Shown here: positions 18,469 to 35,065 of the stretch, piece by piece
Numbering within the stretch: position 1 is the stretch's first letter
Layout of the letters: the number at the start of each line of letters is the position of its first letter
From: a virus
Length of the DNA: 64,000 nucleotides
IMG/VR virus record: IMGVR_UViG_3300027769_000020
Span: 1 to 64,000 of that record
Strand: one strand, 5' to 3'
Program-made: the position numbers and the translations under genes
The notes under the pieces: model-generated
Seen by the model: the letters and a program-made list of their open reading frames with translations, nothing else
Databases searched by the model: none
What the model was told of the DNA's origin: nothing

Positions 18469-19215
18469 TTAAATTAAGTTGAATACCTTTTTTTGTATAA
18501 ATTCATTAGCAGAAGATGGATCTGACATAACTTTAATTGTTTTGATATGCTTATCAATATTCTTTAAAGTTTCTTTATGATCATATGATTCATATGCTTG
18601 AATAAACACATTTAAAAATTGTTTTTTAACCCATCTGTCAGCAACACCAATTTTAATAAATAAATCACTAAAAGCTTTACACATTTCTTTAGCTTTTGGA
18701 TTGTTAATTTTAAACTCTCCATTTTTAATTTTAGCACTTGAAGTTGCAATAGCATTATATGTGTTTGTATTATTACAAATTGATGCAATCATAAGAGCTT
18801 CTAAATGATATAGACCCATGTATTCTTGCAAAGTAGCATAATCAGGATTACAATATGAAAATGCATGAATATAATCTTTTAACAACCATGCTTTAGATGA
18901 ATTATTATAACAAGCCATTGTTTCAACAAGATCTTCTTTGCTAATTATTTCAATATATTCATATCTTACTGGAATACCTTCTCTTCTACAACAGTCTAAT
19001 AAATGATCACCATCTATTACATATGTTAAATTTGTTCCAGTAAAAAAATCTACTTTACAACATATAACTTGTCTAGTGTTACCTTTTTTACGGACACTTT
19101 CTACTAAATCTTGTGTATGCTTAGATCCTGTTGGTCTTTGCATAGGTAATCTGTTAAACATATTATAATTTGTAGTAACAGATATTTTAATAAAATCATT
19201 TTTGTTTTCTTTCAT
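18469..19215 (-). CDS. ParB/Srx-like N-terminal domain protein
   Basis: QR....H...L..S; YVIDGDHL (cf. IDGQHR); N.SSK.W...DY. Confidence 0.55.
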   Translation of the reverse strand: MKENKNDFIKISVTTNYNMFNRLPMQRPTGSKHTQDLVESVRKKGNTRQVICCKVDFFTGTNLTYVIDGDHLLDCCRREGIPVRYEYIEIISKEDLVETMACYNNSSKAWLLKDYIHAFSYCNPDYATLQEYMGLYHLEALMIASICNNTNTYNAIATSSAKIKNGEFKINNPKAKEMCKAFSDLFIKIGVADRWVKKQFLNVFIQAYESYDHKETLKNIDKHIKTIKVMSDPSSANEFIQKKVFNLI

Positions 19216-19244
19216 CTTTTCAGTCTTTTAATTTCAGTAATTTT

Positions 19245-20313: not shown

Positions 20314-20790
20314 TTAGATGTTGAATTCATCTGATGCTGTAGGATTAACTGCAGATAATTTGATTTTACTTTGACCATTAGCAGCTTTAATCTCTTCAGA
20401 GTTATCATGCTTTACTAATTCATCAGTAACATTAGTAATAATTGTATAAATAGTTTTTCTATAAATAGATTGACCATTTATTTTACATACTACACCAGTA
20501 TTACCTGCATACTTAAGATTCTTAGTCTCATCTTTTTTATTTGGTGCTTTAGTAGATTCAATGATTACTATTTTACCCGGTAATATTTGACCAGCATAAT
20601 AAGCTTCTTCTTTTAAATCTTCCATTGTACCAACAATTAAAGCACTAACTACTCTTCTTCTTAAGAAGCCATTATCATCAAAGATGCTTCTTACTTGTTC
20701 TACTCTAACATATCCATAGTCAGGATTGTTTACTGACTGAGTGATGACATTACCTAGTTCATCACCAGTTACTTTAACTTTTGTTTCCAT
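20314..20790 (-). CDS. Hypothetical beta-rich protein (possible nucleic-acid binding)
   Basis: ORF; GYVRVEQ, LPGKIV..ES, K.AG.TG..C..NGQ.IYR. Confidence 0.7.
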   Translation of the reverse strand: METKVKVTGDELGNVITQSVNNPDYGYVRVEQVRSIFDDNGFLRRRVVSALIVGTMEDLKEEAYYAGQILPGKIVIIESTKAPNKKDETKNLKYAGNTGVVCKINGQSIYRKTIYTIITNVTDELVKHDNSEEIKAANGQSKIKLSAVNPTASDEFNI

Positions 20791-20875
20791 GATAAATGTT
20801 TTTTACGGTTTAAACACTATTTTATTTTATGATTGATGAGTATAAATTGACACTTGGTATACTCTCCAAGTAAGA

Positions 20876-22502: not shown

Positions 22503-22509
22503 AATCTTT

Positions 22510-22731
22510 TCAGTATTTAGTTTTAGAATATAAGTATTCATAATACACTTTTTCCCCTTCTGTGATTGTAGTATCTTTATGCAGATCCATGTGTCCTCTA
22601 TAATGATACACTTTAGTCTGTAATACTCTTTCTTTATTTTCTACTGTAAACAGTAACACAAGAAGAAATATTATTACAGATACTACAACTCCTGTTTCAA
22701 TTTTTTTATTGTTTGTCATCATAATTAACAA
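22510..22731 (-). CDS. Small membrane protein
   Basis: Single hydrophobic segment. Confidence 0.55.
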   Translation of the reverse strand: MLIMMTNNKKIETGVVVSVIIFLLVLLFTVENKERVLQTKVYHYRGHMDLHKDTTITEGEKVYYEYLYSKTKY

Positions 22732-23910: not shown

Positions 23911-23944
23911 ATCTTTTCAGTTTTTAGTTATCAGTTAATAATAA

Positions 23945-25005: not shown

Positions 25006-25302
25006 CTATAATTCTACATCAAAAGTTTTAGCCTGTGGTGCAAAGCTCAAAGAACTTACCACTTCTGCACCTACTCCTGCTTTATGTATCATCCAGCTTG
25101 GCTCTCCGTCCTCTGGATTAAACCAACTTACTACTAAATCATCAGACAGGTTTGTTACGTTTTCTGCTATACGGAAAGTGATTCCCGTATTAGTACTACC
25201 AAATAGTTTACCTGTTTTTGGATTCTTAAGTATGTCTATTTTAGTTAGACCATTAGACATTGCAAATCCGTTAATTGACTGTGTTCTTGTAAATGTGCTC
25301 AT
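25006..25302 (-). CDS. Early cassette protein, paralog A
   Basis: Clearly similar to 25425..25715. Confidence 0.8.
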   Translation of the reverse strand: MSTFTRTQSINGFAMSNGLTKIDILKNPKTGKLFGSTNTGITFRIAENVTNLSDDLVVSWFNPEDGEPSWMIHKAGVGAEVVSSLSFAPQAKTFDVEL

Positions 25303-25424
25303 AATTTTTATTTTTTAGAGTTAAACAATATATATCCATATTAGTTGAAAAATGGATAAAGATGCGTAGCAAAAAAATACACTATAAAAAATAAACCTCT
25401 ACCTATTACGGTAGAGGAATATCT

Positions 25425-25715
25425 TTAGAACTCTTGCATTACAGTTACTGGTGTGAAACTTAAAGTTGAAACAACTTCAGCACCAGCACCTTGTCTGTGT
25501 ATCATGTATGATGGTTCTCCGTCTTCAGGAGAAAACCATGATATTGCTAAATCATTACTTAATGCAGTAATGTCTTTAGCAAGACGCAATGTGTTACCCT
25601 TTGAGTCAACGGCAAATAAGTTACCGTTTTTAGGGTTTTTCAAGATATCAAATTTAGTGATACCGTTTGCTGATGCATAAGCACCAATGTTCTGTGTTTT
25701 AGAAAATGTAGACAT
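25425..25715 (-). CDS. Early cassette protein, paralog B
   Basis: Shares DILKNPK.G.LF and SWF.PEDGEPS.MIH..G.GAEVVS.LSF with 25006. Confidence 0.8.
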   Translation of the reverse strand: MSTFSKTQNIGAYASANGITKFDILKNPKNGNLFAVDSKGNTLRLAKDITALSNDLAISWFSPEDGEPSYMIHRQGAGAEVVSTLSFTPVTVMQEF

Positions 25716-25821
25716 GATCTTTAATTTTTATTAGTTAAACAATTTATATCAATATCAGTTAAAAAATGGATAAGGCTGACGCAGTCAAAAAAAAAGAGAG
25801 GACTTTAATCCCCTCTTGTTA

Positions 25822-26133
25822 TTACTCTTTAATAGGTCTACTGCAAGATAGAATATTCTTCTCTATCTTCTCAATAGTGAACCAAGATGTTCCATCATAC
25901 CCATCAAACTGAATCTCTTCTTCAGGGTGCAGATCTACTTCATAAGGTGTATACCCACCCTCTGCACAAGCTTCTTTAAATAAAGAATCTGAATATACAC
26001 GTTCAAGATCTTCATCCTCAAACATGTAATAACAATGATCAATTATGGCTCTTTTTAATTCTTCAAGTGTATCACACACTGTCCAGAACTCTGCACCATA
26101 ACTACTTTTATTTGCTGTAAATACTTTTTTCAT
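25822..26133 (-). CDS. Early acidic protein
   Basis: Own motif and terminator. Confidence 0.75.
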   Translation of the reverse strand: MKKVFTANKSSYGAEFWTVCDTLEELKRAIIDHCYYMFEDEDLERVYSDSLFKEACAEGGYTPYEVDLHPEEEIQFDGYDGTSWFTIEKIEKNILSCSRPIKE

Positions 26134-26210
26134 AATATATAATTTAAATTGTTAATTATTAATAGTTAAAAAATGGAAAAAAAGAATGGGTATAAACCCA
26201 CTCTTGTTAT

Positions 26211-26507
26211 TTACTTAACATCCCATTCTTGAATATGATAATGATATTCTAATGGGTCTTGCATCATATGTATTTCATTTAAATACATCATCTCTGCACT
26301 TTCATAACTATTGAATGTACCTTTATTATCTTGCATCCAATCTTGAAATGATTTGGGTTCAACTAACTTGTTATCACGTACAATCATTCTATTCATCTCT
26401 GAATTAGCAAGGGCTAATGATGTATGTACACTACATATAACTGTTGAACCGTGTTCACCTGTAACTCTTTCATAAGAGTTAGATAATATTATAAATACTT
26501 TTTCCAT
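26211..26507 (-). CDS. Early hypothetical protein
   Basis: Own motif and terminator. Confidence 0.75.
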   Translation of the reverse strand: MEKVFIILSNSYERVTGEHGSTVICSVHTSLALANSEMNRMIVRDNKLVEPKSFQDWMQDNKGTFNSYESAEMMYLNEIHMMQDPLEYHYHIQEWDVK

Positions 26508-26570
26508 AATCTTTAAGTTTATAATTAGTTAAAAAATGGTAAAATAAGAGAGAGCATAAGCTCCCTCTTG

Positions 26571-26831
26571 TTAAGGTATCAACATTACTGATCTGATATT
26601 TTTATCAGTTAATTCATCATACTCAGTGATTAAGTTGAACCAATGGTTGGCATAACCACTACTGTTCATGCAACGGCAAGTGATTCTTTCTTCTCTTAAA
26701 GAACCATAGAAAGAATAGTTATACTCACCTAATATGAATGAACCTGCATAGATCCATTCATTACCCTTTGCATCACGCATTGGGTGTATTGCTCTTACTG
26801 CATTTTCTAATGCTTCTCTAATCTTTTCCAT
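26571..26831 (-). CDS. Early hypothetical protein
   Basis: Own motif and terminator. Confidence 0.75.
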   Translation of the reverse strand: MEKIREALENAVRAIHPMRDAKGNEWIYAGSFILGEYNYSFYGSLREERITCRCMNSSGYANHWFNLITEYDELTDKNIRSVMLIP

Positions 26832-26880
26832 AACATATATTTTATTGACAGTTAAAAAATGGAAAAAATAAAGGGGTATA

Positions 26881-27054
26881 TTAATCCCCTATAGTCTTAA
26901 GAATCTCCAGCATTTCCTTTAGTGCTGTTCTATAACCAATATGCCAATGCCAATCATTATCAGTTGGTAAATCACCTGATTCTATCCAATGAGTAGTATC
27001 ATCTATATTTTCTTGTAGTGATTCTTTTAATCTTTCTAATTCTTTTATATTCAT
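26881..27054 (-). CDS. Early hypothetical protein (57 aa, start MNIKEL)
   Basis: ATG 27054 lies downstream of motif 27079. Confidence 0.7.
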   Translation of the reverse strand: MNIKELERLKESLQENIDDTTHWIESGDLPTDNDWHWHIGYRTALKEMLEILKTIGD

Positions 27055-27124
27055 AATCTTTAAGTTTAAATTATTAACAGTTAAAAAATGGTTTATTAAA
27101 AAGGGGGTATTATTCCCCCCTTTT

Positions 27125-27496
27125 TTACAAGTTTTTAAACATAGCAACTAAGTCAGCATGGTCATCATTACCATTAATGTCATCTAACTTAGGTAACTCA
27201 GGTAAGTTAACATCTTTGCCTGAATATACATTCCAATCTACTGAACCATAACCTGTACGTTTATCAAAGTTCTCCATGACATATGCATGAAGCATTTTCC
27301 ATATATCATCACAATACATGCCTGTAAGTTTATGATATCCATCAATAGTGAGTCCATCAAATCTTGGTACATAACCCATAGTATCCCATGAGTAACCATC
27401 TTCAAACATTCTTACTTTCTTTGCAACAAATGTTATTACAGGAAAAGCAATAGTGTTTTCTACCTCAATTTTCTTTTTATACGTTATTGTTTTCAT
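27125..27496 (-). CDS. Early hypothetical protein
   Basis: Own motif and terminator. Confidence 0.75.
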   Translation of the reverse strand: MKTITYKKKIEVENTIAFPVITFVAKKVRMFEDGYSWDTMGYVPRFDGLTIDGYHKLTGMYCDDIWKMLHAYVMENFDKRTGYGSVDWNVYSGKDVNLPELPKLDDINGNDDHADLVAMFKNL

Positions 27497-27556
27497 AATA
27501 AATAGTTTTAATTATTAATAGTTATAAAATGGTCCCCGCAGGGGAAATAGTGTGCA

Positions 27557-27700
27557 TCATTTAACACACACTATTTTAAACAGACCTTGAGTATATCCAT
27601 TACTCATAAGTTGTTTCTTTTTCCAAAGGGCTAATGCCTTAGAAGGAAACACAAAGCTCTCTATGAGTCTTGTGTTATTATAGTATTCTAATCTATACAT
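27557..27700 (-). CDS. Early hypothetical protein (47 aa, start MYRLEY)
   Basis: ATG 27700 lies downstream of motif 27719. Confidence 0.7.
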   Translation of the reverse strand: MYRLEYYNNTRLIESFVFPSKALALWKKKQLMSNGYTQGLFKIVCVK

Positions 27701-27931
27701 GGTATTATAATTAATAACAGTTATAAAATGGTAAGACAAAAAAAGAGAGAGAGTATTAAACTCTCTCTCAATGTTGCTGGCTAAAGCCTGTTCCGGTACT
27801 TACATCTCCAAAGCTATAAGGAGAACGCCTCTGACTTGAAACATAATGAGTATTGATAGAGATCATTAGTTCACTCTATCCATAATAGTTAAAAAATGGA
27901 TTAAGACAAAGAGAGATAACCTCTCCTTTCA

Positions 27932-28078
27932 TCAGAAAGGGAGGTCATCTTCATCAATATCATATGTATAATTCTCAAGGCTATCCATAGCCTCAAGAGT
28001 TATACGCATCATATCATTGTAATAGTCTTGCTCCTCTTGGAGCATGATATTAATATCATTGAATTCAGTATCACGCAT
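27932..28078 (-). CDS. 48-aa acidic early peptide ending in EDDLPF (SSB C-tail-like)
   Basis: MRDTEFNDINIMLQEEQDYYNDMMRITLEAMDSLENYTYDIDEDDLPF; missed by ORF track. Confidence 0.75.
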   Translation of the reverse strand: MRDTEFNDINIMLQEEQDYYNDMMRITLEAMDSLENYTYDIDEDDLPF

Positions 28079-28278
28079 AATATATAATTTTAAAGTTAAT
28101 AACAGTTATAAGATGGTTAAATAAAAAAGAGAAACACCCGAAGGTATCTCTCTTGCTTTCTCCTGATCTTGCCAAAGCTAAGCTCAAATGATGTGTGTTT
28201 ACATAACATACACATCATTCATTATAATTTATAAACAGTTATAAGATGGTAAAGAAAAAAACATAAGAGCCTAAGCTC

Positions 28279-28455
28279 TTATTTTTTGTACTTTTCTGAA
28301 TCAGGTGCGGCTAATACACCCATTAATAAGAAGAATGTTAAACCTATGAACACAGCAGCCAGTGTTGTCATGTGTTCAAGTATGCTCTCTGTAGCTGCAT
28401 AGCCAAGCATGATTGTACATGCAATCATAATCTTGTAGTGTAAAGAATATTTCAT
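28279..28455 (-). CDS. 58-aa two-TM membrane protein, first cassette of early array
   Basis: MKYSLHYKIMIACTIMLGYAATESILEHMTTLAAVFIGLTFFLLMGVLAAPDSEKYKK; terminator overlaps stop. Confidence 0.75.
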   Translation of the reverse strand: MKYSLHYKIMIACTIMLGYAATESILEHMTTLAAVFIGLTFFLLMGVLAAPDSEKYKK

Positions 28456-28492
28456 AGTGTGTAATTTTTAATTAAATTAAGTTAGAAAATGG

Positions 28493-28633
28493 TTGCCTTG
28501 CGCAGCAAGCATGGGGGGTACCACCTCTGGCTTCAGGGGGTGGGGGTGTTGTAGTAGGGGTCCATCACAAAGCCCTACATATATAAATTCCCCTAGCCGT
28601 AAGTTCATCACACCTGGGGTGAAAATAACCCGC
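28493..28633. other. GC-rich island at the divergence of the two arms
   Basis: G-tracts G6/G5/G5/G4 and hairpins in an AT-rich genome. Confidence 0.6.
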
Positions 28634-28663
28634 AAAAGTTATTGTGTATTGTACCAATGTTAT

Positions 28664-28735
28664 TATATTTGTACTAATTAGTTTTTAAATTTTATTGTTA
28701 TCATTAATCCTCAGATGTATGTCTGGGGATTTTTG
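28664..28735 (+). ncRNA. Promoter-short U-rich RNA-terminator unit 1
   Basis: TATATTTG, ~30 nt, AATCCTCAGA-TGTATG-TCTGGGGATT-TTT. Confidence 0.45.
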
Positions 28736-28744
28736 TTTAAGATA

Positions 28745-28935
28745 TTACTCCTGTGTTCAAGTAGCACAGGTCCAGTACCAGTTAAGCATCCCATAAGATC
28801 TGCTTGTTGGTCTTCTCTGCTCAGGAAAGTGGAATTGATTTATAGGTGTAAACGCGTTACCTCTATAAGCAACCATATAACTGCAGCAACCCCAAGTAAG
28901 TTTCTCTGATCAGGAAATACTGCTTGGGTTTTTTT
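28745..28935 (+). ncRNA. Candidate structured RNA
   Basis: Serial hairpins ending in CCCAAG..CTTGGG-T7 terminator; no credible ORF. Confidence 0.4.
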
Positions 28936-28964
28936 ATTTATATTTACAAGATAAAATTAATATT

Positions 28965-29303
28965 ATGAGACACGTAGAAAAAGCATTATTAAAATACAAT
29001 GAAGAGAATAATGAGAAATGGACACAGTTCATTCAAATTGAAAATGCAGAGGATGTAAAAGATGTAGCACCTGTAGTAAAATTTACAATACAATCTGATC
29101 CAATTAGTGAAGTAGGGGTTAATGGAGTACAAGCATTAGATATGTTAAAGTATGTTAAGTGTTTATTTGAAAGTTTAAATGATGCATTTCCATGTAAAGA
29201 AAATGTTTTGAGTATTACAAAAATTGAAGAAGCTATTCACTGGCAAGATGCTAGAACTAAAGATAGACAACGTAGACAAGTAGAAGGTCATAATAAAAAG
29301 TAA
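28965..29303 (+). CDS. tad1: Tad1-like immune-signal sponge (anti-Thoeris/CBASS)
   Basis: IQSDPISEVGVNG...D.L......L...FPCKEN...ITKIEEAIHW...RT.DR.RR.VEG matches the recalled Tad1 C-terminal signature. Confidence 0.75.
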   Translation: MRHVEKALLKYNEENNEKWTQFIQIENAEDVKDVAPVVKFTIQSDPISEVGVNGVQALDMLKYVKCLFESLNDAFPCKENVLSITKIEEAIHWQDARTKDRQRRQVEGHNKK

Positions 29304-29312
29304 ATAGTTACT

Positions 29313-29579
29313 ATGAAGTTATATATTGAGAAACCTAAAACTGTTGCTGCTATGCAATGGGATGGTACAGAGAAGATGGCTATTGAGATTTCTAGTGATG
29401 AGAAATTTGAAGGTATGTTGGATTACAGGCAGAGAAAATTTTTTGCATTCTGGATGTATGACGGGGATAGAGAATATAGAGTGCATGAGGGGGACTATAT
29501 ATTAAAGGATTGGAATGGGACTTATTCTATGGTACCAAAAAAATTATTTGAAAAATCTTTTGAAGAAGTCAAAGAATAA
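29313..29579 (+). CDS. Phage protein of KKP..(V/I)EA.QWDG...GDYI....G....(F/Y)E family
   Basis: Motif pattern. Confidence 0.65.
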   Translation: MKLYIEKPKTVAAMQWDGTEKMAIEISSDEKFEGMLDYRQRKFFAFWMYDGDREYRVHEGDYILKDWNGTYSMVPKKLFEKSFEEVKE

Positions 29580-29685
29580 TTATTATATTTGTTGAGCTGA
29601 TAAGTGTTTACGGTTCATTTATTTTGTGATTAAAAGTTATATCTAAAAAGTAAGCTCTAGTTAATTCTTAGGGCTTATTTTTTTT
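29559..29685 (+). ncRNA. Promoter-short RNA-terminator unit 2
   Basis: TTTG-N21-TATATTTG (Bacteroidota sigma consensus), ~55 nt, TAAGCTCTA..TAGGGCTTA-T8. Confidence 0.5.
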
Positions 29686-29698
29686 AAAAAGGAAAAGC

Positions 29699-30655
29699 AT
29701 GGCAATTTTTGATTATCATTACAGACAGGTATTGAAAGATATCTACTGGAAAGGGTTTGTATATGAAGACCCTAACAGAAAAGGAGTAGAAAGAAAGCAG
29801 ATAGCAAAAGCTACTCTAAGTTGTAACCCACATGAAGGCTTCCCTGCCTTGACTACAAAGCAAGTTTATTTTAAAGGTGCAGTAGCAGAGTTATTATTTT
29901 TTATGTCAGGTTCTACTGATATAAGAAACTTGTGGAAAATGGATGTAAGATTCTGGGATAAGGATTGGGCACGTTATCATAAGTTTACTGATGAAACTAT
30001 TAAGTACTTATATAATGCATGGGAGTATTCTGAAATAGATGATAGAATGAATAGGTTACCAGATTCATTATATGATATGGGTAAGGTATATCCTTATCAA
30101 TGGAGAAAGGCTAATGGTGTAGATCAGTTATATAATCTTGCATTTAATATGGTCACTAATCCTATGTCAACATCATTGATTGTTAACTCATGGAATGCTG
30201 GTGATTTAGTTGATATGTGTTTGCCTCCGTGTCATTATTCATTTCAAGTAATGTGCCAACCAGTAGGTAAAACATATGTGTTTAGAATTATATGGGACCA
30301 AAGGTCTACAGATTTTTTCTTAGGTACTCCGGTGAACATGATGTTCTATACCTTACTAGGTCATGTACTAGAAGCATTGACAGGATATAAATGTATAGAG
30401 GTATCAGGTGAATTAAAGAATGTACACATATATGATAACCAAATGGATGTAGTAAAGGAACAGTTAGACCGTCCAGTTGATACATATGGTGAGAGTAAAC
30501 TTGTATTAGATAAATCTAAATTTAAAATATTTATTCAAAATCCTACAAGTTTAAACTTTGATTATGTAATAAAATCATTATCTTTATCAGACTTTAAGTT
30601 GGAGGGATATGCAAGTTATCCAAAACTTAAAGTAGAAATGTTAAGTTATAATTAA
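29699..30655 (+). CDS. thyA: Thymidylate synthase (ThyA family, divergent)
   Basis: FPALTTK; ELLFF; LPPCH; QRSTDFFLG.P.N; HIY. Confidence 0.9.
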   Translation: MAIFDYHYRQVLKDIYWKGFVYEDPNRKGVERKQIAKATLSCNPHEGFPALTTKQVYFKGAVAELLFFMSGSTDIRNLWKMDVRFWDKDWARYHKFTDETIKYLYNAWEYSEIDDRMNRLPDSLYDMGKVYPYQWRKANGVDQLYNLAFNMVTNPMSTSLIVNSWNAGDLVDMCLPPCHYSFQVMCQPVGKTYVFRIIWDQRSTDFFLGTPVNMMFYTLLGHVLEALTGYKCIEVSGELKNVHIYDNQMDVVKEQLDRPVDTYGESKLVLDKSKFKIFIQNPTSLNFDYVIKSLSLSDFKLEGYASYPKLKVEMLSYN

Positions 30656-30667
30656 AAATTAAAGAGT

Positions 30668-30958
30668 ATGAGTACAGTGTTTAAGAGTCTAAAAGGACGT
30701 AGAATCTTGGTTAACCAACCAGAGATGAAAGAATCAGCAATTGAATTGACTGAGAAAGATAAAAGTCTTATTGAGCAAGAAGCTATGAAAAAGTGGACAA
30801 GATTAGAAGTGTTTGCAACAGGTGAAGAAGTATCTGGAGTAAAAGCTGGTGATCATGTTTACATTTCAGTTAATGCTATTAAAGGAGCTGAAGTAATTGA
30901 AGTAGAAGAAAGCATCAAACTTATGTTGAGTGAGTATGATGTTGCAATTGTTTGGTAA
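30668..30958 (+). CDS. groES: GroES-like co-chaperonin
   Basis: L.GRRILV; V.ATG.EV..VKAGD.V; L.EYDV. Confidence 0.75.
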   Translation: MSTVFKSLKGRRILVNQPEMKESAIELTEKDKSLIEQEAMKKWTRLEVFATGEEVSGVKAGDHVYISVNAIKGAEVIEVEESIKLMLSEYDVAIVW

Positions 30959-30959
30959 G

Positions 30960-31385
30960 ATGGCTGATTTAGTTTGTGATGCATACAAGAGGATGATTTC
31001 AAAACCTGAGACATCCAATACATATGATAAGAGTCTGAGAATTATGGCTGAGATTGCTGCAAATAAAACTAATGCAATGTACAAAGATTATATCAGGAAA
31101 ACTGAGTCTAGTCTTTATGTAGGCAAAGATTCTTTTGCAGGTCAAAAACCTACAGCAGTTACAGTACCTGGCACCGCAATAAGACCAAACCATTACGGTG
31201 GAGAGAATAGTACTTATGAAGTATTCAATGTACTAGAAGCATGGGGATTAGATAAAGACTTTTACTTAGGTAATGTTATTAAGTATATTGCAAGAGCAGG
31301 TAAGAAAGATCCTGCTAAAGAAATAGAAGATCTTGAAAAAGCTGAGGTGTATTTAAAAAGAAGAATAGCTGAATTAAAAAAATAA
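30960..31385 (+). CDS. DUF3310 (SaV / T7 gp1.7-like) protein
   Basis: PNHY..., FYLGNVIKY..RAGKK....EDL.KA..YL. Confidence 0.8.
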   Translation: MADLVCDAYKRMISKPETSNTYDKSLRIMAEIAANKTNAMYKDYIRKTESSLYVGKDSFAGQKPTAVTVPGTAIRPNHYGGENSTYEVFNVLEAWGLDKDFYLGNVIKYIARAGKKDPAKEIEDLEKAEVYLKRRIAELKK

Positions 31386-31417
31386 TATTTACTGTGTGCT
31401 ATGTAAAATATTATATA

Positions 31418-31495
31418 TACATTAGCACTCCTTTTTATTCTCAGTTTTCGCTGGCTGATTAATCCCAATGAGTTAAATACTTGTTGGGATTTTTT
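31418..31495 (+). ncRNA. Promoter-short U-rich RNA-terminator unit 3
   Basis: TACATTAG box, ~35 nt, AATCCCAA..TTGGGATT-TTTT. Confidence 0.4.
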
Positions 31496-31497
31496 AT

Positions 31498-31577
31498 TAT
31501 ATTTGTCCATCAATTTTTTTAAATTTATACTTTTAGGTAAGGAGATCCCGGATTAATAATCTGGGATTTTGTTTTTT
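31498..31577 (+). ncRNA. Promoter-short U-rich RNA-terminator unit 4
   Basis: TATATTTG, ~38 nt, ATCCCGGAT..ATCTGGGAT-TTTGTTTTTT. Confidence 0.45.
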
Positions 31578-31590
31578 ATATTATTATTAT

Positions 31591-31599
31591 GTATATTAT
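31591..31599 (+). promoter_or_regulatory. Putative late promoter box GTATATTAT
   Basis: Also at 34636, 41181 and 60545, each ~28-40 nt before a structural/lysis gene start. Confidence 0.5.
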
Positions 31600-31628
31600 A
31601 GATATATGTGTAATTAAAAAAAAGAAAC

Positions 31629-32468
31629 ATGGATATTTTAAATATTATAAGCTGGATTAAAAATAAACGCTATGTAACAAGTGTTGACCCAGCAACAACA
31701 CTAATGCCTATTGGATTAAAAGATGACCGTAGAGATGATGGTTATTTAGCAGGAGTTATTACAGTAGAAAATTTAGCTGCACAGTTAGGTGGAAATAAAT
31801 TAGTTGATGATACTAGAGAAGTTGTATTAACTGATAATGCAGGATATGCAGAATTAACATTCAATACTGGTTCTGCAATAATTCAAACTTCAGGAGTTAA
31901 TGCTGATTTAACAATTAGTACTTTAAGTGGAGATGATATTATTCTTGAATCTGGGGATGATATTAGATTACAAGGTGATGTTGGTCTTTTTGATGATGAA
32001 ACTGAAGGTGGAGATATAAATATCTATGCTGGAAATGGTTCTGATGGTAATACAGCTAATGCAGGATCTGGTGGAGATATTAGAATTGAAGCAGGTGATG
32101 CTGGTAACAGTATATCAGGTTCTCAAGGAGAAGGTGGTTTTGTAACTATTCAAGCTGGTTATACTTCAACAACTGGTTTATCAGGAGGAGATATTAGTCT
32201 TTATCCAGGTAACAGTATAGATGGTAAACATGGTGATGTTATTATTCAAGGTAACTTTACATGGACATTTTCTACAAGTAATGCAATACTTTTATTTCCT
32301 GCAGTAACTTTAGCTACATTACCAAGTGCAGCTGGAGTACCTGGAGCAAGAGCTATGATTGCTGATTCTAATGTACCAGCACCAGGAAACTTTGGAGCAA
32401 TTGCTGCAACAGGAGGTTCTGCTGTAGTTCCAGTATTTTCAGATGGTGTAAATTGGTTAATAGGTTAA
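31629..32468 (+). CDS. Virion fibre protein 1 (shared N-terminal anchor; GG.I.I.AG repeats)
   Basis: N-terminus paralogous to next two genes; C-terminal VPVFSDG.NW. Confidence 0.7.
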   Translation: MDILNIISWIKNKRYVTSVDPATTLMPIGLKDDRRDDGYLAGVITVENLAAQLGGNKLVDDTREVVLTDNAGYAELTFNTGSAIIQTSGVNADLTISTLSGDDIILESGDDIRLQGDVGLFDDETEGGDINIYAGNGSDGNTANAGSGGDIRIEAGDAGNSISGSQGEGGFVTIQAGYTSTTGLSGGDISLYPGNSIDGKHGDVIIQGNFTWTFSTSNAILLFPAVTLATLPSAAGVPGARAMIADSNVPAPGNFGAIAATGGSAVVPVFSDGVNWLIG

Positions 32469-32488
32469 TAATAAAAAATAAATAAAGC

Positions 32489-33241
32489 ATGGATGTTTTA
32501 AATATAATTTCCTGGATTAAAGGAAAAAGACAAGTAACAGCTGTTGACCCAGCTTTGACAGTAATTCCATTAGGAGTTAAAGATAATAAAAGAGGTGATG
32601 GATATATTCCAGTAACTATAACTGTAGAAGATTTTGCAGGTTCAGTTGCACCTACTTTATATGATAGTAAAGATAATATATTTATTGGAGAAAATGTATT
32701 TAATGACCTTAGTGATGTTGATAAAACAGAAAATATTGCAATTGGTACAAATGCATTACGAAACACTGTAAATGCACAAAATATTGGTATTGGTTCAGAC
32801 ACATTACGCACTAATACTGAAGGTTTTCAAAATATAGCAATTGGTAATAGCAGTTTATTATTAAACACTACTGGTGAAAATAATATAGGAATCGGTGTAG
32901 TATCAATGTTATTTAGCACTACCAGTAGAAACAATGTTGCTATTGGATCATTTGCATTATTTGATATTACTACTGGTCGCGATAATGTTGCAGTAGGTTT
33001 AAATGCTTTAGGTGGTTTAACTACCGGTTCATATAATACAGGTATAGGTTATGAAACATATGCTGGAAATTACAGTTCTTGTGTATTATTAGGTAGAAGA
33101 GCGCAGGCTACAGGTAATAATCAATTTGTAGTAGGTTCAGTTGGTGATCCAGCAGGTTCAGTAACAAATGAAGTAAACACATCTAGTAAAGTATGGAATG
33201 TGGTTATCAATGGTGTATCTAGAAAAATTTTATTAGCATAA
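32489..33241 (+). CDS. Virion fibre protein 2 (N.AIG..AL beta-roll repeats)
   Basis: 14-residue adhesin-like repeats. Confidence 0.7.
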   Translation: MDVLNIISWIKGKRQVTAVDPALTVIPLGVKDNKRGDGYIPVTITVEDFAGSVAPTLYDSKDNIFIGENVFNDLSDVDKTENIAIGTNALRNTVNAQNIGIGSDTLRTNTEGFQNIAIGNSSLLLNTTGENNIGIGVVSMLFSTTSRNNVAIGSFALFDITTGRDNVAVGLNALGGLTTGSYNTGIGYETYAGNYSSCVLLGRRAQATGNNQFVVGSVGDPAGSVTNEVNTSSKVWNVVINGVSRKILLA

Positions 33242-33265
33242 TAATTAACATAAAAATAAATAGAA

Positions 33266-34168
33266 ATGGATGTTTTAAATTTTATATCTTGGCTTAAATC
33301 TAAAAGACAAGTTACAACAGTAGATGCTTCTCAAACCTTAATCCCATTAGGTTTAAAAGATGCAAGAAGAGGTGATGCATATTTACCAGGTGCTATATCA
33401 GTAGAGGATTTATTAGCTTTATCACCAGGACTTCCTAGTTTTGTTGAATATAATGAAACAAATAAAACATTATGGAATAATGGAATAACTAATAATAGTG
33501 CAAATACTTCATTTGGTGAGGGAGCATTAACAGGTAGTCCAGATTCATATGTTACGGCAATTGGTCATAATGCAGTAAGAATTGGAACAGGTGGTGATAA
33601 TACAGGTATAGGTGCATATGCTTTAGGTAATTTAGTAGCGGCTTCTAGAAATACAGCAGTTGGTTCATTTGCATTAGCTGGTGATCTTACAGGTAGCAAT
33701 AATGTAGCCATTGGAGCAACAGTTTTAGCAACTACTACTTCAGGTTTTTGTAATGTTGGAATTGGATATCAAGCATTAATATTTAATACAACAGGTAGTC
33801 GTAATGTTTCTATAGGAGAAATAAGTAACTATGCTAATACAACAGGTGTTAATAATACATCACTTGGAGCTTACAGTAATCTTTCAAATACAGTAGGTTC
33901 TTTTAATGTTGCTATAGGATATAATTCATTAAGTGGTAATACTTCTGGTAATTATAATGCATGTTTAGGTTCACTAACAAGTTCTAATAATTTTTCAGGT
34001 TCTGTTATATTAGGTTCAAATGCAATTGCTACTGGAAATAATCAATTTGTAGTAGGATCTAATTCATATAATGCTGGAGCAATTGCTACTGAAGCATTAG
34101 TACCAACTAAATCATGGACTGTTAAAATTAATGGTGTTGACTATAAAATTCCATTACAAGTTGCATAA
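33266..34168 (+). CDS. Virion fibre protein 3 (N.AIG..AL beta-roll repeats)
   Basis: 14-residue adhesin-like repeats. Confidence 0.7.
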   Translation: MDVLNFISWLKSKRQVTTVDASQTLIPLGLKDARRGDAYLPGAISVEDLLALSPGLPSFVEYNETNKTLWNNGITNNSANTSFGEGALTGSPDSYVTAIGHNAVRIGTGGDNTGIGAYALGNLVAASRNTAVGSFALAGDLTGSNNVAIGATVLATTTSGFCNVGIGYQALIFNTTGSRNVSIGEISNYANTTGVNNTSLGAYSNLSNTVGSFNVAIGYNSLSGNTSGNYNACLGSLTSSNNFSGSVILGSNAIATGNNQFVVGSNSYNAGAIATEALVPTKSWTVKINGVDYKIPLQVA

Positions 34169-34206
34169 TAAAAAATAAATATATTAACTTTATAAAAAAA
34201 TAAATC

Positions 34207-34425
34207 ATGGCATTAGAATTAACTCCAGAACAAGTAGCAAAATCTGTATCAGCTGCATATGATAGTGTAGCATTAATTACAGAATTAAAAGCAAAAGAAT
34301 CATTAACTGAAGAAGAGGCAGATACATTAAAACGTAATGAAGAGCACATCAGAATTATGTTAGCTAAAGACTTTTTTGTTGCTGCTTTAACTAAAAAGCA
34401 AAACACTGAATTATCTAAAATATGA
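34207..34425 (+). CDS. Small helical protein (possible fibre chaperone)
   Basis: AAYDSV.LI...RN.EHI.IML after fibre genes. Confidence 0.6.
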   Translation: MALELTPEQVAKSVSAAYDSVALITELKAKESLTEEEADTLKRNEEHIRIMLAKDFFVAALTKKQNTELSKI

Positions 34426-34574
34426 GACAAGAGGATGCACAGAAAATTGTAGAACAAGCTTTGAATCAAGCATTTTTAAAAGGAGCATATAGCTTACAAG
34501 ATGCAGCAATGATTACAGAAGCATTAAAAGTTCTATTTACAAGACCTGAATTAGAACTTGTACAAGAAAACTAA
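34422..34574 (+). CDS. Small hypothetical protein (50 aa)
   Basis: Read by hand MRQEDAQKIVEQALNQAF.KGAYSLQDA. Confidence 0.65.
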   Translation: MRQEDAQKIVEQALNQAFLKGAYSLQDAAMITEALKVLFTRPELELVQEN

Positions 34575-34580
34575 AAGCAT

Positions 34581-34609
34581 AAGCCACAGAGATGTGGCTT
34601 TTCTTTTTT
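34581..34609 (+). terminator. Intrinsic terminator
   Basis: AAGCCACA-GAGA-TGTGGCTT then T-run. Confidence 0.75.
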
Positions 34610-34663
34610 ATATTTGTTTATCTAGAAAGTTTTAAGTATATTATTATATATAAATAAATTATT

Positions 34664-35065
34664 ATGTCAGTAGGAGATTTAAAAACATACGGTGGGAAAG
34701 GTACTGATTTTCCTTGGCAATTAAAAATGTTGCTAGGTCAACAAGCAACAGTTGACTTATTAACTGCTATTGCAGCTGGTACAGTTGATGTTGAACCATA
34801 TTTAATTGATCTAGTTAACAATACAGATCCTTCAGAAAGAACACCTAACTTAATTAGAGCTACAGGAGCTGGTACTATTGCACCATTAACATATGATTTT
34901 TCTGTATCTAATGTAGGTGCTGGAAATGGTACAATACTAGGAGGTACAATTAAACCAGGGGAAACATTGAATTTTGCAGCAGGAGCATTGCGTAATTTTT
35001 ATGCAGCTAATTCAATTTCTTATGATGGTACTGGTACTGAATTAGTAATTATCTATAATTCATAA
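34664..35065 (+). CDS. Putative structural protein
   Basis: Late-region ORF. Confidence 0.6.
   Translation: MSVGDLKTYGGKGTDFPWQLKMLLGQQATVDLLTAIAAGTVDVEPYLIDLVNNTDPSERTPNLIRATGAGTIAPLTYDFSVSNVGAGNGTILGGTIKPGETLNFAAGALRNFYAANSISYDGTGTELVIIYNS

Follow-up and report, generated by a model that had tools for sequence, protein, structure and literature searches.

GibS, a small RNA (sRNA) of Bacteroides thetaiotaomicron, places a single-stranded 5′ seed of 30-50 nucleotides (nt) on translation initiation regions without a Shine-Dalgarno (SD) sequence and represses them (PMC7366714). FopS is a multi-copy sRNA family built of a 5′ single strand and a terminator hairpin, one copy of which was reported in a Bacteroides phage (PMC7366714, PMC11697453). 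Here we report on four putative sRNA genes, termed units 1 to 4, in an uncultured virus contig of 91.5 kb (IMG/VR record IMGVR_UViG_3300027769_000020; 76% complete); its first 64,000 nt, with 30% G+C, were examined and are referred to below as the window. Our reading, to which we assign a probability of roughly 0.6, is that all four are stand-alone sRNA genes, that unit 2 is antisense to the leader of a phage gene at 20314-20790, that units 1 and 4 form a second family and that unit 3 is a third type.

The four units share with GibS and FopS, as far as can be told from their sequences, a promoter of their own, an intrinsic terminator, the lack of an open reading frame (ORF) and a long single-stranded 5′ part. 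Within the phage genomes, only unit 2 has in addition a GibS-like single-stranded seed across the start codon of an SD-less mRNA, a match that is above chance and conserved. Unlike GibS and FopS, the four units are phage-encoded and the putative target of unit 2 is one of the phage's own genes; and while the 5′ seed is conserved in FopS, it is the 3′ scaffold that is conserved in units 1 and 4, with a variable 5′ end. As the covariance models of FopS and GibS had no match in the window at the gathering score (Rfam 15), the units are not members of those families.

Antisense RNAs are also known from other phages. The c4 RNA of phages P1 and P7 is a 77-nt phage RNA that acts in trans around the ribosome binding site of a phage mRNA and blocks its translation (Citron and Schuster, 1990, reviewed in PMC12197685), and c4 and its target differ together between related phages (PMC12197685). 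Unit 2 resembles c4 in being complementary to a phage leader and start (-54 to +2) with which it co-varies in two to three lineages, and it would act similarly. It differs in that it has a promoter box and a terminator of its own, is encoded in the other arm at a distance of 8.8 kb, and offers one long 5′ single strand; c4, in contrast, is presumably processed from the same operon transcript as its target, pairs through short complementary stretches in loops and serves immunity in temperate phage-plasmids. The small cis-antisense RNAs OOP of lambda and sar of P22, which lower the expression of phage mRNAs (PMC12197685), lie opposite their own targets and are perfectly complementary to them, whereas unit 2 (29597-29642) is encoded far from 20789-20844 and is about 75% complementary to it.

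Anatomy and conservation of the four units

The genes of the window form two diverging arms, on the minus strand until 28455 and on the plus strand starting at 28965. An earlier note on this DNA had placed units made of a promoter, a short ORF-less stretch and a terminator at 28664, 29584, 31418 and 31498, and we found them to exist as described. The features of the units and of the target of unit 2 are:

28660-28671, + strand: promoter of unit 1, an exact 12-mer containing the -7 box TATATTTG
28677-28738, + strand: RNA of unit 1 (inferred ends), with about 30 nt single-stranded, the terminator hairpin 28706-28731 and a U run
29580-29591, + strand: promoter of unit 2, the exact 12-mer TTATTATATTTG
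29597-29642, + strand: antisense segment of unit 2, 46 nt pairing with -54 to +2 of the 20790 mRNA
29652-29685, + strand: terminator hairpin and U run of unit 2, with a stem that covaries in relatives
31418-31497, + strand: unit 3, with the variant box TACATTAG, a conserved 5′ stretch containing UUCUCAGU and the terminator 31461-31491
31494-31505, + strand: promoter of unit 4, the exact 12-mer TTATTATATTTG
31511-31577, + strand: RNA of unit 4 (inferred ends), with a variable 5′ part of 23 nt followed by a constant scaffold at 31534-31577 (UAGGUAAGGAG, hairpin, U run)
20789-20844, - strand: target site, comprising the 5′ untranslated region (5′ UTR) and the first AUG bases of the 158-amino-acid (aa) gene
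20314-20790, - strand: target gene, encoding a conserved 158-aa protein, OB-fold-like, with an acidic C-terminal end

The 12-mer is found exactly at 28660, 29580 and 31494, always on the plus strand and in intergenic sequence, against an expectation of 0.08 copies, and three copies were reached in none of 100 shuffles. Copies with a single mismatch lie ahead of other right-arm genes (34605, 42741 and 54312) and have no terminator after them. The primary sigma factor (sigma-A) of Bacteroidota has TAnnTTTG as its -7 consensus (PMC7366714), and the host therefore very probably belongs to this phylum. The host-type box claimed for each unit was confirmed as the exact 12-mer in units 1, 2 and 4, while in unit 3 the box is one base off TAnnTTTG, though it is retained at that place in 23 distinct relatives.

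Thirteen terminator-like sites, including those of units 1, 3 (31461-31491) and 4 (31542-31570), lie within 27500-35000, where 2.8 are expected; the hairpin of unit 2 shows up in the predicted fold. Each of the four putative RNAs folds into a single-stranded 5′ part and a strong 3′ hairpin (z of -3.1 to -5.3), and the terminator stem of unit 4 covaries among relatives as that of unit 2 does. The U runs of the terminators run into the following box. No plausible ORF fitting any of the four units was found, ARAGORN found nothing, and a search with Rfam 15 gave no family at gathering score in the window and nothing relevant at E up to 10 in 28400-31700.

All four units are kept in more than 20 related uncultured phages. 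These relatives are 115-122-kb phage contigs from environmental metagenomes, among them the complete G001 (121,494 bp), which carries terminal repeats. Below, G000 denotes the window's own genome, and G001, G005, G009, L139, L140, L141, L041 and L143/L144 are among the relatives compared with it. Cultured phages (INPHARED) gave a single weak DNA match, to a Chryseobacterium phage, and no match to the target protein. The anatomy of the units and its conservation are thus established by the analysis, and they suggest that the units are probably sRNA genes that make small RNAs.

Unit 2 and the leader of the 158-aa gene

Unit 2 and the leader of the 158-aa gene resemble each other on the same DNA strand and, because the arms diverge, they are antisense to each other as RNAs. 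The 5′ 46 nt of unit 2 form 40 predicted pairs with -54 to +2 of the target mRNA in G000 (-29.4 kcal/mol), so that unit 2 is an imperfect mirror, about 75% complementary, of the leader and AUG of a gene 8.8 kb away on the opposite arm. Across the cognate pairs the predicted duplexes comprise 40-48 pairs, reaching from about -55 to between +2 and +6 and covering the entire 5′ UTR and the start codon, with the AUG faced by the 5′ end of unit 2. The earlier note had pointed to a match between 29599-615 and the sequence beside the start codon at 20790; this match is real and extends much further than first described.

We ranked the predicted duplexes of unit 2 with the -70 to +10 regions of all ORFs that begin with ATG and have 40 codons or more, on either strand of four genomes. 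The target leader came first of 233 in G000 (-29.4 vs. -28.2 kcal/mol for the next), first of 270 in G001 (-40.4 vs. -27.2), first of 272 in G009 (-39.0 vs. -28.3) and second of 213 in G005. Shuffled sequences had been proposed as a control for the AT-richness of the matches, and all seven cognate pairs of unit 2 and leader surpassed every one of 500 dinucleotide shuffles of unit 2 (z of -4.1 to -7.7). When unit 2 was compared by blastn with the whole genome of G001, the top non-self match was the target leader (60 nt, 75% identity, E of 3e-5; the next had 0.03), located in the DNA immediately upstream of the orthologue of 20314-20790 and including its start codon. The leader is likewise the outstanding match of unit 2 in L141 and L143/L144 (E of 5e-5 to 2e-4). 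A narrower test in the window, in which the single-stranded part of each unit was paired by RNAduplex with -30 to +20 of 64 left-arm starts and compared with 200 dinucleotide shuffles, was marginal for unit 2, the fraction of shuffles at least as good being 0.04.

Compensatory changes between the partners, another check that had been suggested, are seen in the relatives. A core helix with G and C reads AACCGUAAA in the mRNA and UUUACGGUU in unit 2 in G000, G001, G009 and L139, and AAUCGCAAA and UUUGCGAUU, respectively, in G005 and L141; between these two states two positions are altered on both partners. A third state, CCUUAA with AAGG, is found when the leader of L140 is paired with unit 2 of L041, two contigs from one sample that were not shown to be one phage. 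In total, three helix positions vary on both sides of the duplex between lineages. Cognate duplexes have predicted energies of -28 to -40 kcal/mol, and non-cognate ones across the two clearly separated lineages -13 to -23. Both the complementarity and its co-variation are established by these comparisons.

The homology of unit 2 sets in directly past the box and does not reach the terminator. A further box comes after unit 2 in G005 and L141, where the gene behind it is a different one and thyA is missing, which makes unit 2 a self-contained cassette. In G000 and G001 its terminator adjoins the start of the thymidylate synthase gene thyA, and since no promoter lies between them, unit 2 is there also the leader of thyA on read-through. 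We found unit 2 in a single subclade, that with target proteins of 56% identity or more; a unit 2-like copy in the distant relative G006 was rejected, as it lies inside a coding gene. From all these patterns we conclude that unit 2 is probably a trans-encoded antisense RNA that throttles the phage gene 20314-20790.

The target is a core gene of the phage group, with 204 relatives in IMG/VR and a copy in all nine longer genomes that cover the region, and its neighbours are helicase, primase and ParB-like genes. The 158-aa protein has no sequence match in Pfam, PHROG or PDB. Its model, of moderate confidence (predicted local distance difference test, pLDDT, of 63, with residues 1-80 at 70-86) shows a beta barrel and one helix, and the nearest structural neighbours are the OB folds of SSB and PriB, generic matches with Z of only about 5; the C-terminus is acidic with a conserved aromatic residue at its end. 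We call the protein SSB-like tentatively, because of the missing sequence match, the pLDDT and the generic nature of the OB matches.

Upstream of this gene (20791-20875, minus strand) the window and its relatives have a conserved TATAC(T/A)CA...AATCAATT block about 45-50 nt before the ATG. In distant relatives the block reads TAGTA..CTACTCA, and it may be a promoter or start site of a third, middle class.

Units 1, 3 and 4

The earlier note had proposed that the other units, too, are antisense to translation starts of left-arm genes; of the proposed set only unit 2, one of four, stood. In the test against the 64 left-arm starts the best duplexes of units 1, 3 and 4 were at the level of shuffles (fractions at least as good of 0.54, 0.81 and 0.45, respectively), and no target of theirs surpassed AT-rich shuffles. 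Neither an outlier nor a shared orthologous target was found for them by genome-wide blastn-short in G000 and G001 or among all ORF starts in G000, G001, G005 and G009. Two very strong hits in the ranking of all starts proved spurious, being ORFs that run antisense to the RNA genes themselves; the ORF read at 31262-31513 on the opposite strand, like its counterpart in G005, is an artefact that the conserved box and terminator create.

All the strings quoted in support of the individual pairs are present at their places. Unit 4 was said to be antisense to the start of an AAA ATPase gene (2617-43), yet the start at 2619 ranks fifth of 64, no better than shuffles, and in an alignment of 23 relatives the stretch in question is the least conserved part of the unit, its 3′ part being near-invariant. 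Unit 3 was said to be complementary to the leaders before 19215, 22502, 23591 and 23910; among these, ranks of 16, 40 and 48 of 64 were obtained. Here the complement had been misread, as the complement of ACTGAAAA is TTTTCAGT, which is absent from unit 3, and the reverse complement of unit 3 overlaps the ACTGAAAA leaders by only about 5 + 2 pairs. The complement of the unit 3 seed is not enriched (34 vs. 26 expected). ACTGAAAAGAT, a shared leader, does stand directly ahead of three left-arm ATGs (19214-19224, 22504-22514 and 23911-23921, minus strand; three copies vs. 0.62 expected), and it is unmatched by unit 3. Three of the four proposed RNA-target pairs are thus chance matches in AT-rich sequence, which tempers the earlier claim.

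Units 1 and 4 are paralogous. In relatives they share a 3′ module that consists of UAGGUAAG, 2-4 purines, a hairpin AUCCYNRGA...UCUGGGRAU and a U run; unit 1 of the window has lost the UAGGUAAG box. In all the DNA that was fetched, this family has 74 instances, in which 14 unrelated 5′ leader types are carried by one scaffold, and the leader of the window's unit 4 is found again at the unit 1 position in G005. Seven of the 14 leader types have CAU within their first 13 nt, where 2.4 are expected. Since some leader types are related this count is only suggestive, and it fits a targeting of start codons by the family. The targets of the family do not seem to be phage start regions and may be host mRNAs. 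Matches to the complement of the scaffold box UAGGUAAGGA in four genomes were all at chance level, and one fell within conserved coding sequence.

Unit 3 has a conserved 5′ stretch, UUCUCAGU, which in the G005/G003 lineage is joined to the scaffold of unit 4. Judged by its sequence, unit 3 is a conserved third type without an identified partner in the phage genomes. A pairing of its box with the scaffold box of units 1 and 4, seen by eye as 4-6 pairs, was inconsistent across relatives and was dropped.

Proposed mode of action and alternative explanations

Each unit would be transcribed from a promoter of the host sigma-A type into an ORF-less RNA of 60-95 nt with a single-stranded 5′ part and an intrinsic terminator. 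Through its first 46 nt or so, unit 2 would pair with its target over the whole 5′ UTR and the start codon, in an interrupted duplex of about 40 pairs. Bacteroidota initiate translation on unstructured, A-rich leaders without an SD sequence, and for this reason coverage of -54 to +2 should block the loading of 30S subunits. The long duplex may additionally be cut by RNase III, and as an outcome the 158-aa protein would be made less or later. Units 1 and 4 would join a constant 3′ scaffold to interchangeable 5′ ends. We infer the production of the RNAs, their ends, the repression and its timing from sequence.

Several points weigh against this reading. In G000 the target leader is ahead of the second-best start by little, and the pair does not stand out there by blastn. 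Unit 2 of L041 is less specific than the others, with -26 to -30 kcal/mol on the leaders of G000, G001, G009 and L139 vs. -30.8 on that of L140, and one co-varying lineage joins these two contigs, L140 and L041. The co-variation of two DNA copies could also come from a common protein-binding site or from gene conversion, unit 2 could be an attenuator before thyA in G000 and G001, and units 1, 3 and 4 are without any target found in phage genomes.

The locus could instead serve the punctuation of transcription only. The hairpins would then close the operons before them and the boxes open those that follow, a promoter with a terminator right behind it would be a regulated leader (an attenuator or a checkpoint of antitermination), and the short RNA would be a by-product. 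Such an arrangement is known from phage lambda, in which PR′ is followed by the close terminator tR′ upstream of the late genes, giving the short 6S RNA, and is under Q antitermination. The position of unit 4, before the tail-spike-like late genes, is similar to that of PR′-tR′; the unit 3 terminator comes after the thyA-DUF3310 operon, the U runs pass directly into the box that follows, and the unit 2 terminator is 8 nt from the start region of thyA, across a promoterless gap. The scaffold of units 1 and 4 is also more conserved than their 5′ ends, as would be expected of a signal recognised by a protein or the polymerase. This explanation leaves unaccounted for the complementarity of unit 2, over 46-60 nt, to a gene 6-9 kb off and their co-variation. 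Moreover, while the gap before thyA is promoterless in G000 and G001, the terminator has a further box behind it in unit 2 of G005 and L141 and in unit 1 of G001 and G009, which makes the downstream gene independent of read-through. Unlike in lambda, no Q-like antiterminator gene or pause element was identified, and the unit 4 terminator is separated from the late gene by an invariant motif. As an account of all four units we consider punctuation unlikely; for units 1, 3 and 4 punctuation or attenuation is reasonable, and beside an antisense role of unit 2 it may coexist before thyA.

According to a second explanation, the similarity of unit 2 and the leader is a repeat at the DNA level, either a duplicated, protein-bound control region or copies kept alike by recombination, with no pairing of RNAs. 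The two copies are indeed direct repeats on one DNA strand, and a common protein site would co-vary too. However, the similarity is unlike an operator in stretching over about 55 nt and containing indels; its limits coincide exactly with a box and a terminator oriented opposite to the target gene; and what it covers is the transcribed leader with the AUG, not the target's promoter. Several of the mismatches between the copies also yield G-U pairs, 3-5 per duplex (e.g., in the start-codon helix of G001). As the similarity is long, gapped, bounded by the signals of an RNA gene and placed over a transcribed leader, a shared DNA operator is the weaker rival, and we regard it as improbable.

The full model of four antisense RNAs acting on left-arm starts, in which unit 4 would target 2619 and unit 3 the ACTGAAAA leaders, is very improbable and is largely refuted already in silico by the ranks, shuffles and alignments given above, although the quoted strings and the ACTGAAAAGAT copies do exist.

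RNA X, a further structured RNA

Between unit 1 and the first right-arm gene lies a structured RNA, RNA X, that was not among the units of the earlier note:

28770-28935, + strand: RNA X, a conserved structured RNA with an intrinsic terminator at its end

RNA X is about 130-175 nt long and was found in more than 30 related phage contigs. It is kept even in distant relatives, mostly with its own TATATTTG box ahead, whereas G001 lacks it at that position. With a covariance model of 15 sequences, 20 further loci were detected (50-156 bits), all of them close to the arm divergence and on the strand of the right arm. The RNA consists of a 5′ hairpin with the invariant loop CCGUAAGAUC, a covarying long-range helix, the junction bases GGAAAG and UAUAAC, and a terminator hairpin; the long-range helix has four different sequences in four lineages. 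In an alignment that was fitted to the model, and so somewhat favours the structure, 91.5% of the cells pair, vs. 75% in shuffles and 33-49% with the partners slid, and 19 of 26 pairs are doubly changed. RNA X has no match in Rfam 15 and is thus a covariation-supported structured RNA outside that database.

The cassettes differ among the phages in number as well as in order. In the window unit 1 is followed by RNA X, in G005 and G008 RNA X precedes a unit of the unit 1 type, and G001 (L090-L096) is without RNA X, so that the RNA cassettes look like independent modules that are being shuffled.

Implications

Unit 2, an RNA of about 90 nt, and the 55-nt leader of its target offer a directly testable pair with natural compensatory variants. 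The pair could show how an SD-less leader is silenced by an RNA. In phage T4, gp32 is controlled by protein autoregulation; unit 2 could show a phage metering an SSB-like protein without autoregulation of this type. The family with a scaffold and variable ends and RNA X are leads to more phage RNA biology. In a wider picture, which we find doubtful, Bacteroidota phages of about 120 kb from freshwater would carry an RNA toolkit of tandem promoter-RNA-terminator cassettes, in which unit 2 meters an SSB-like replication protein, a scaffold/guide family (units 1 and 4; at least 14 guide types moving between positions and lineages) silences host mRNAs at their start codons, and the three-helix RNA X sits at the arm divergence. 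To our knowledge, control by small RNAs is undescribed for environmental Bacteroidota phages and barely explored in Bacteroidota. A 2025 review of phage small RNAs does not mention Bacteroidota (PMC12197685).

Other promoter-like motifs and neighbouring genes

The invariant motif downstream of unit 4 is:

31590-31600, + strand: TGTATATTATA motif, invariant in 23 relatives, about 30 nt ahead of the ATG at 31629

GTATATTAT has six copies, all on the plus strand (including 31591, 34636, 41181 and 60545), and four of them lie 10-40 nt ahead of right-arm gene starts. TGTATATTATA/GTATATTAT is a candidate late promoter or leader element; if TGTATATTATA is a late promoter, unit 4 would be a separate transcription unit. 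On the left arm (25300-28490, minus strand) each short early cassette has CCATTTTTTAACT or a variant of it about 30 nt before the ATG, straight after the previous terminator, a second promoter-like class that is unlike TAnnTTTG.

Where the arms diverge there is a block of about 160 nt (28490-28650), G+C-rich and G-rich on the plus strand, with 70-97% identity in relatives, which may act as an origin, encode an RNA or belong to the first early promoter as its upstream element. The right arm opens with two small genes, followed by thyA (29699-30655) and the gene of a DUF3310 protein, and tail-spike-like genes start from 32489. Most of the relatives L004-L041 have an additional gene of about 70 codons between the DUF3310 gene and unit 3, which the window is without; its product has a hydrophobic N-terminus followed by Cys and looks lipoprotein-like.

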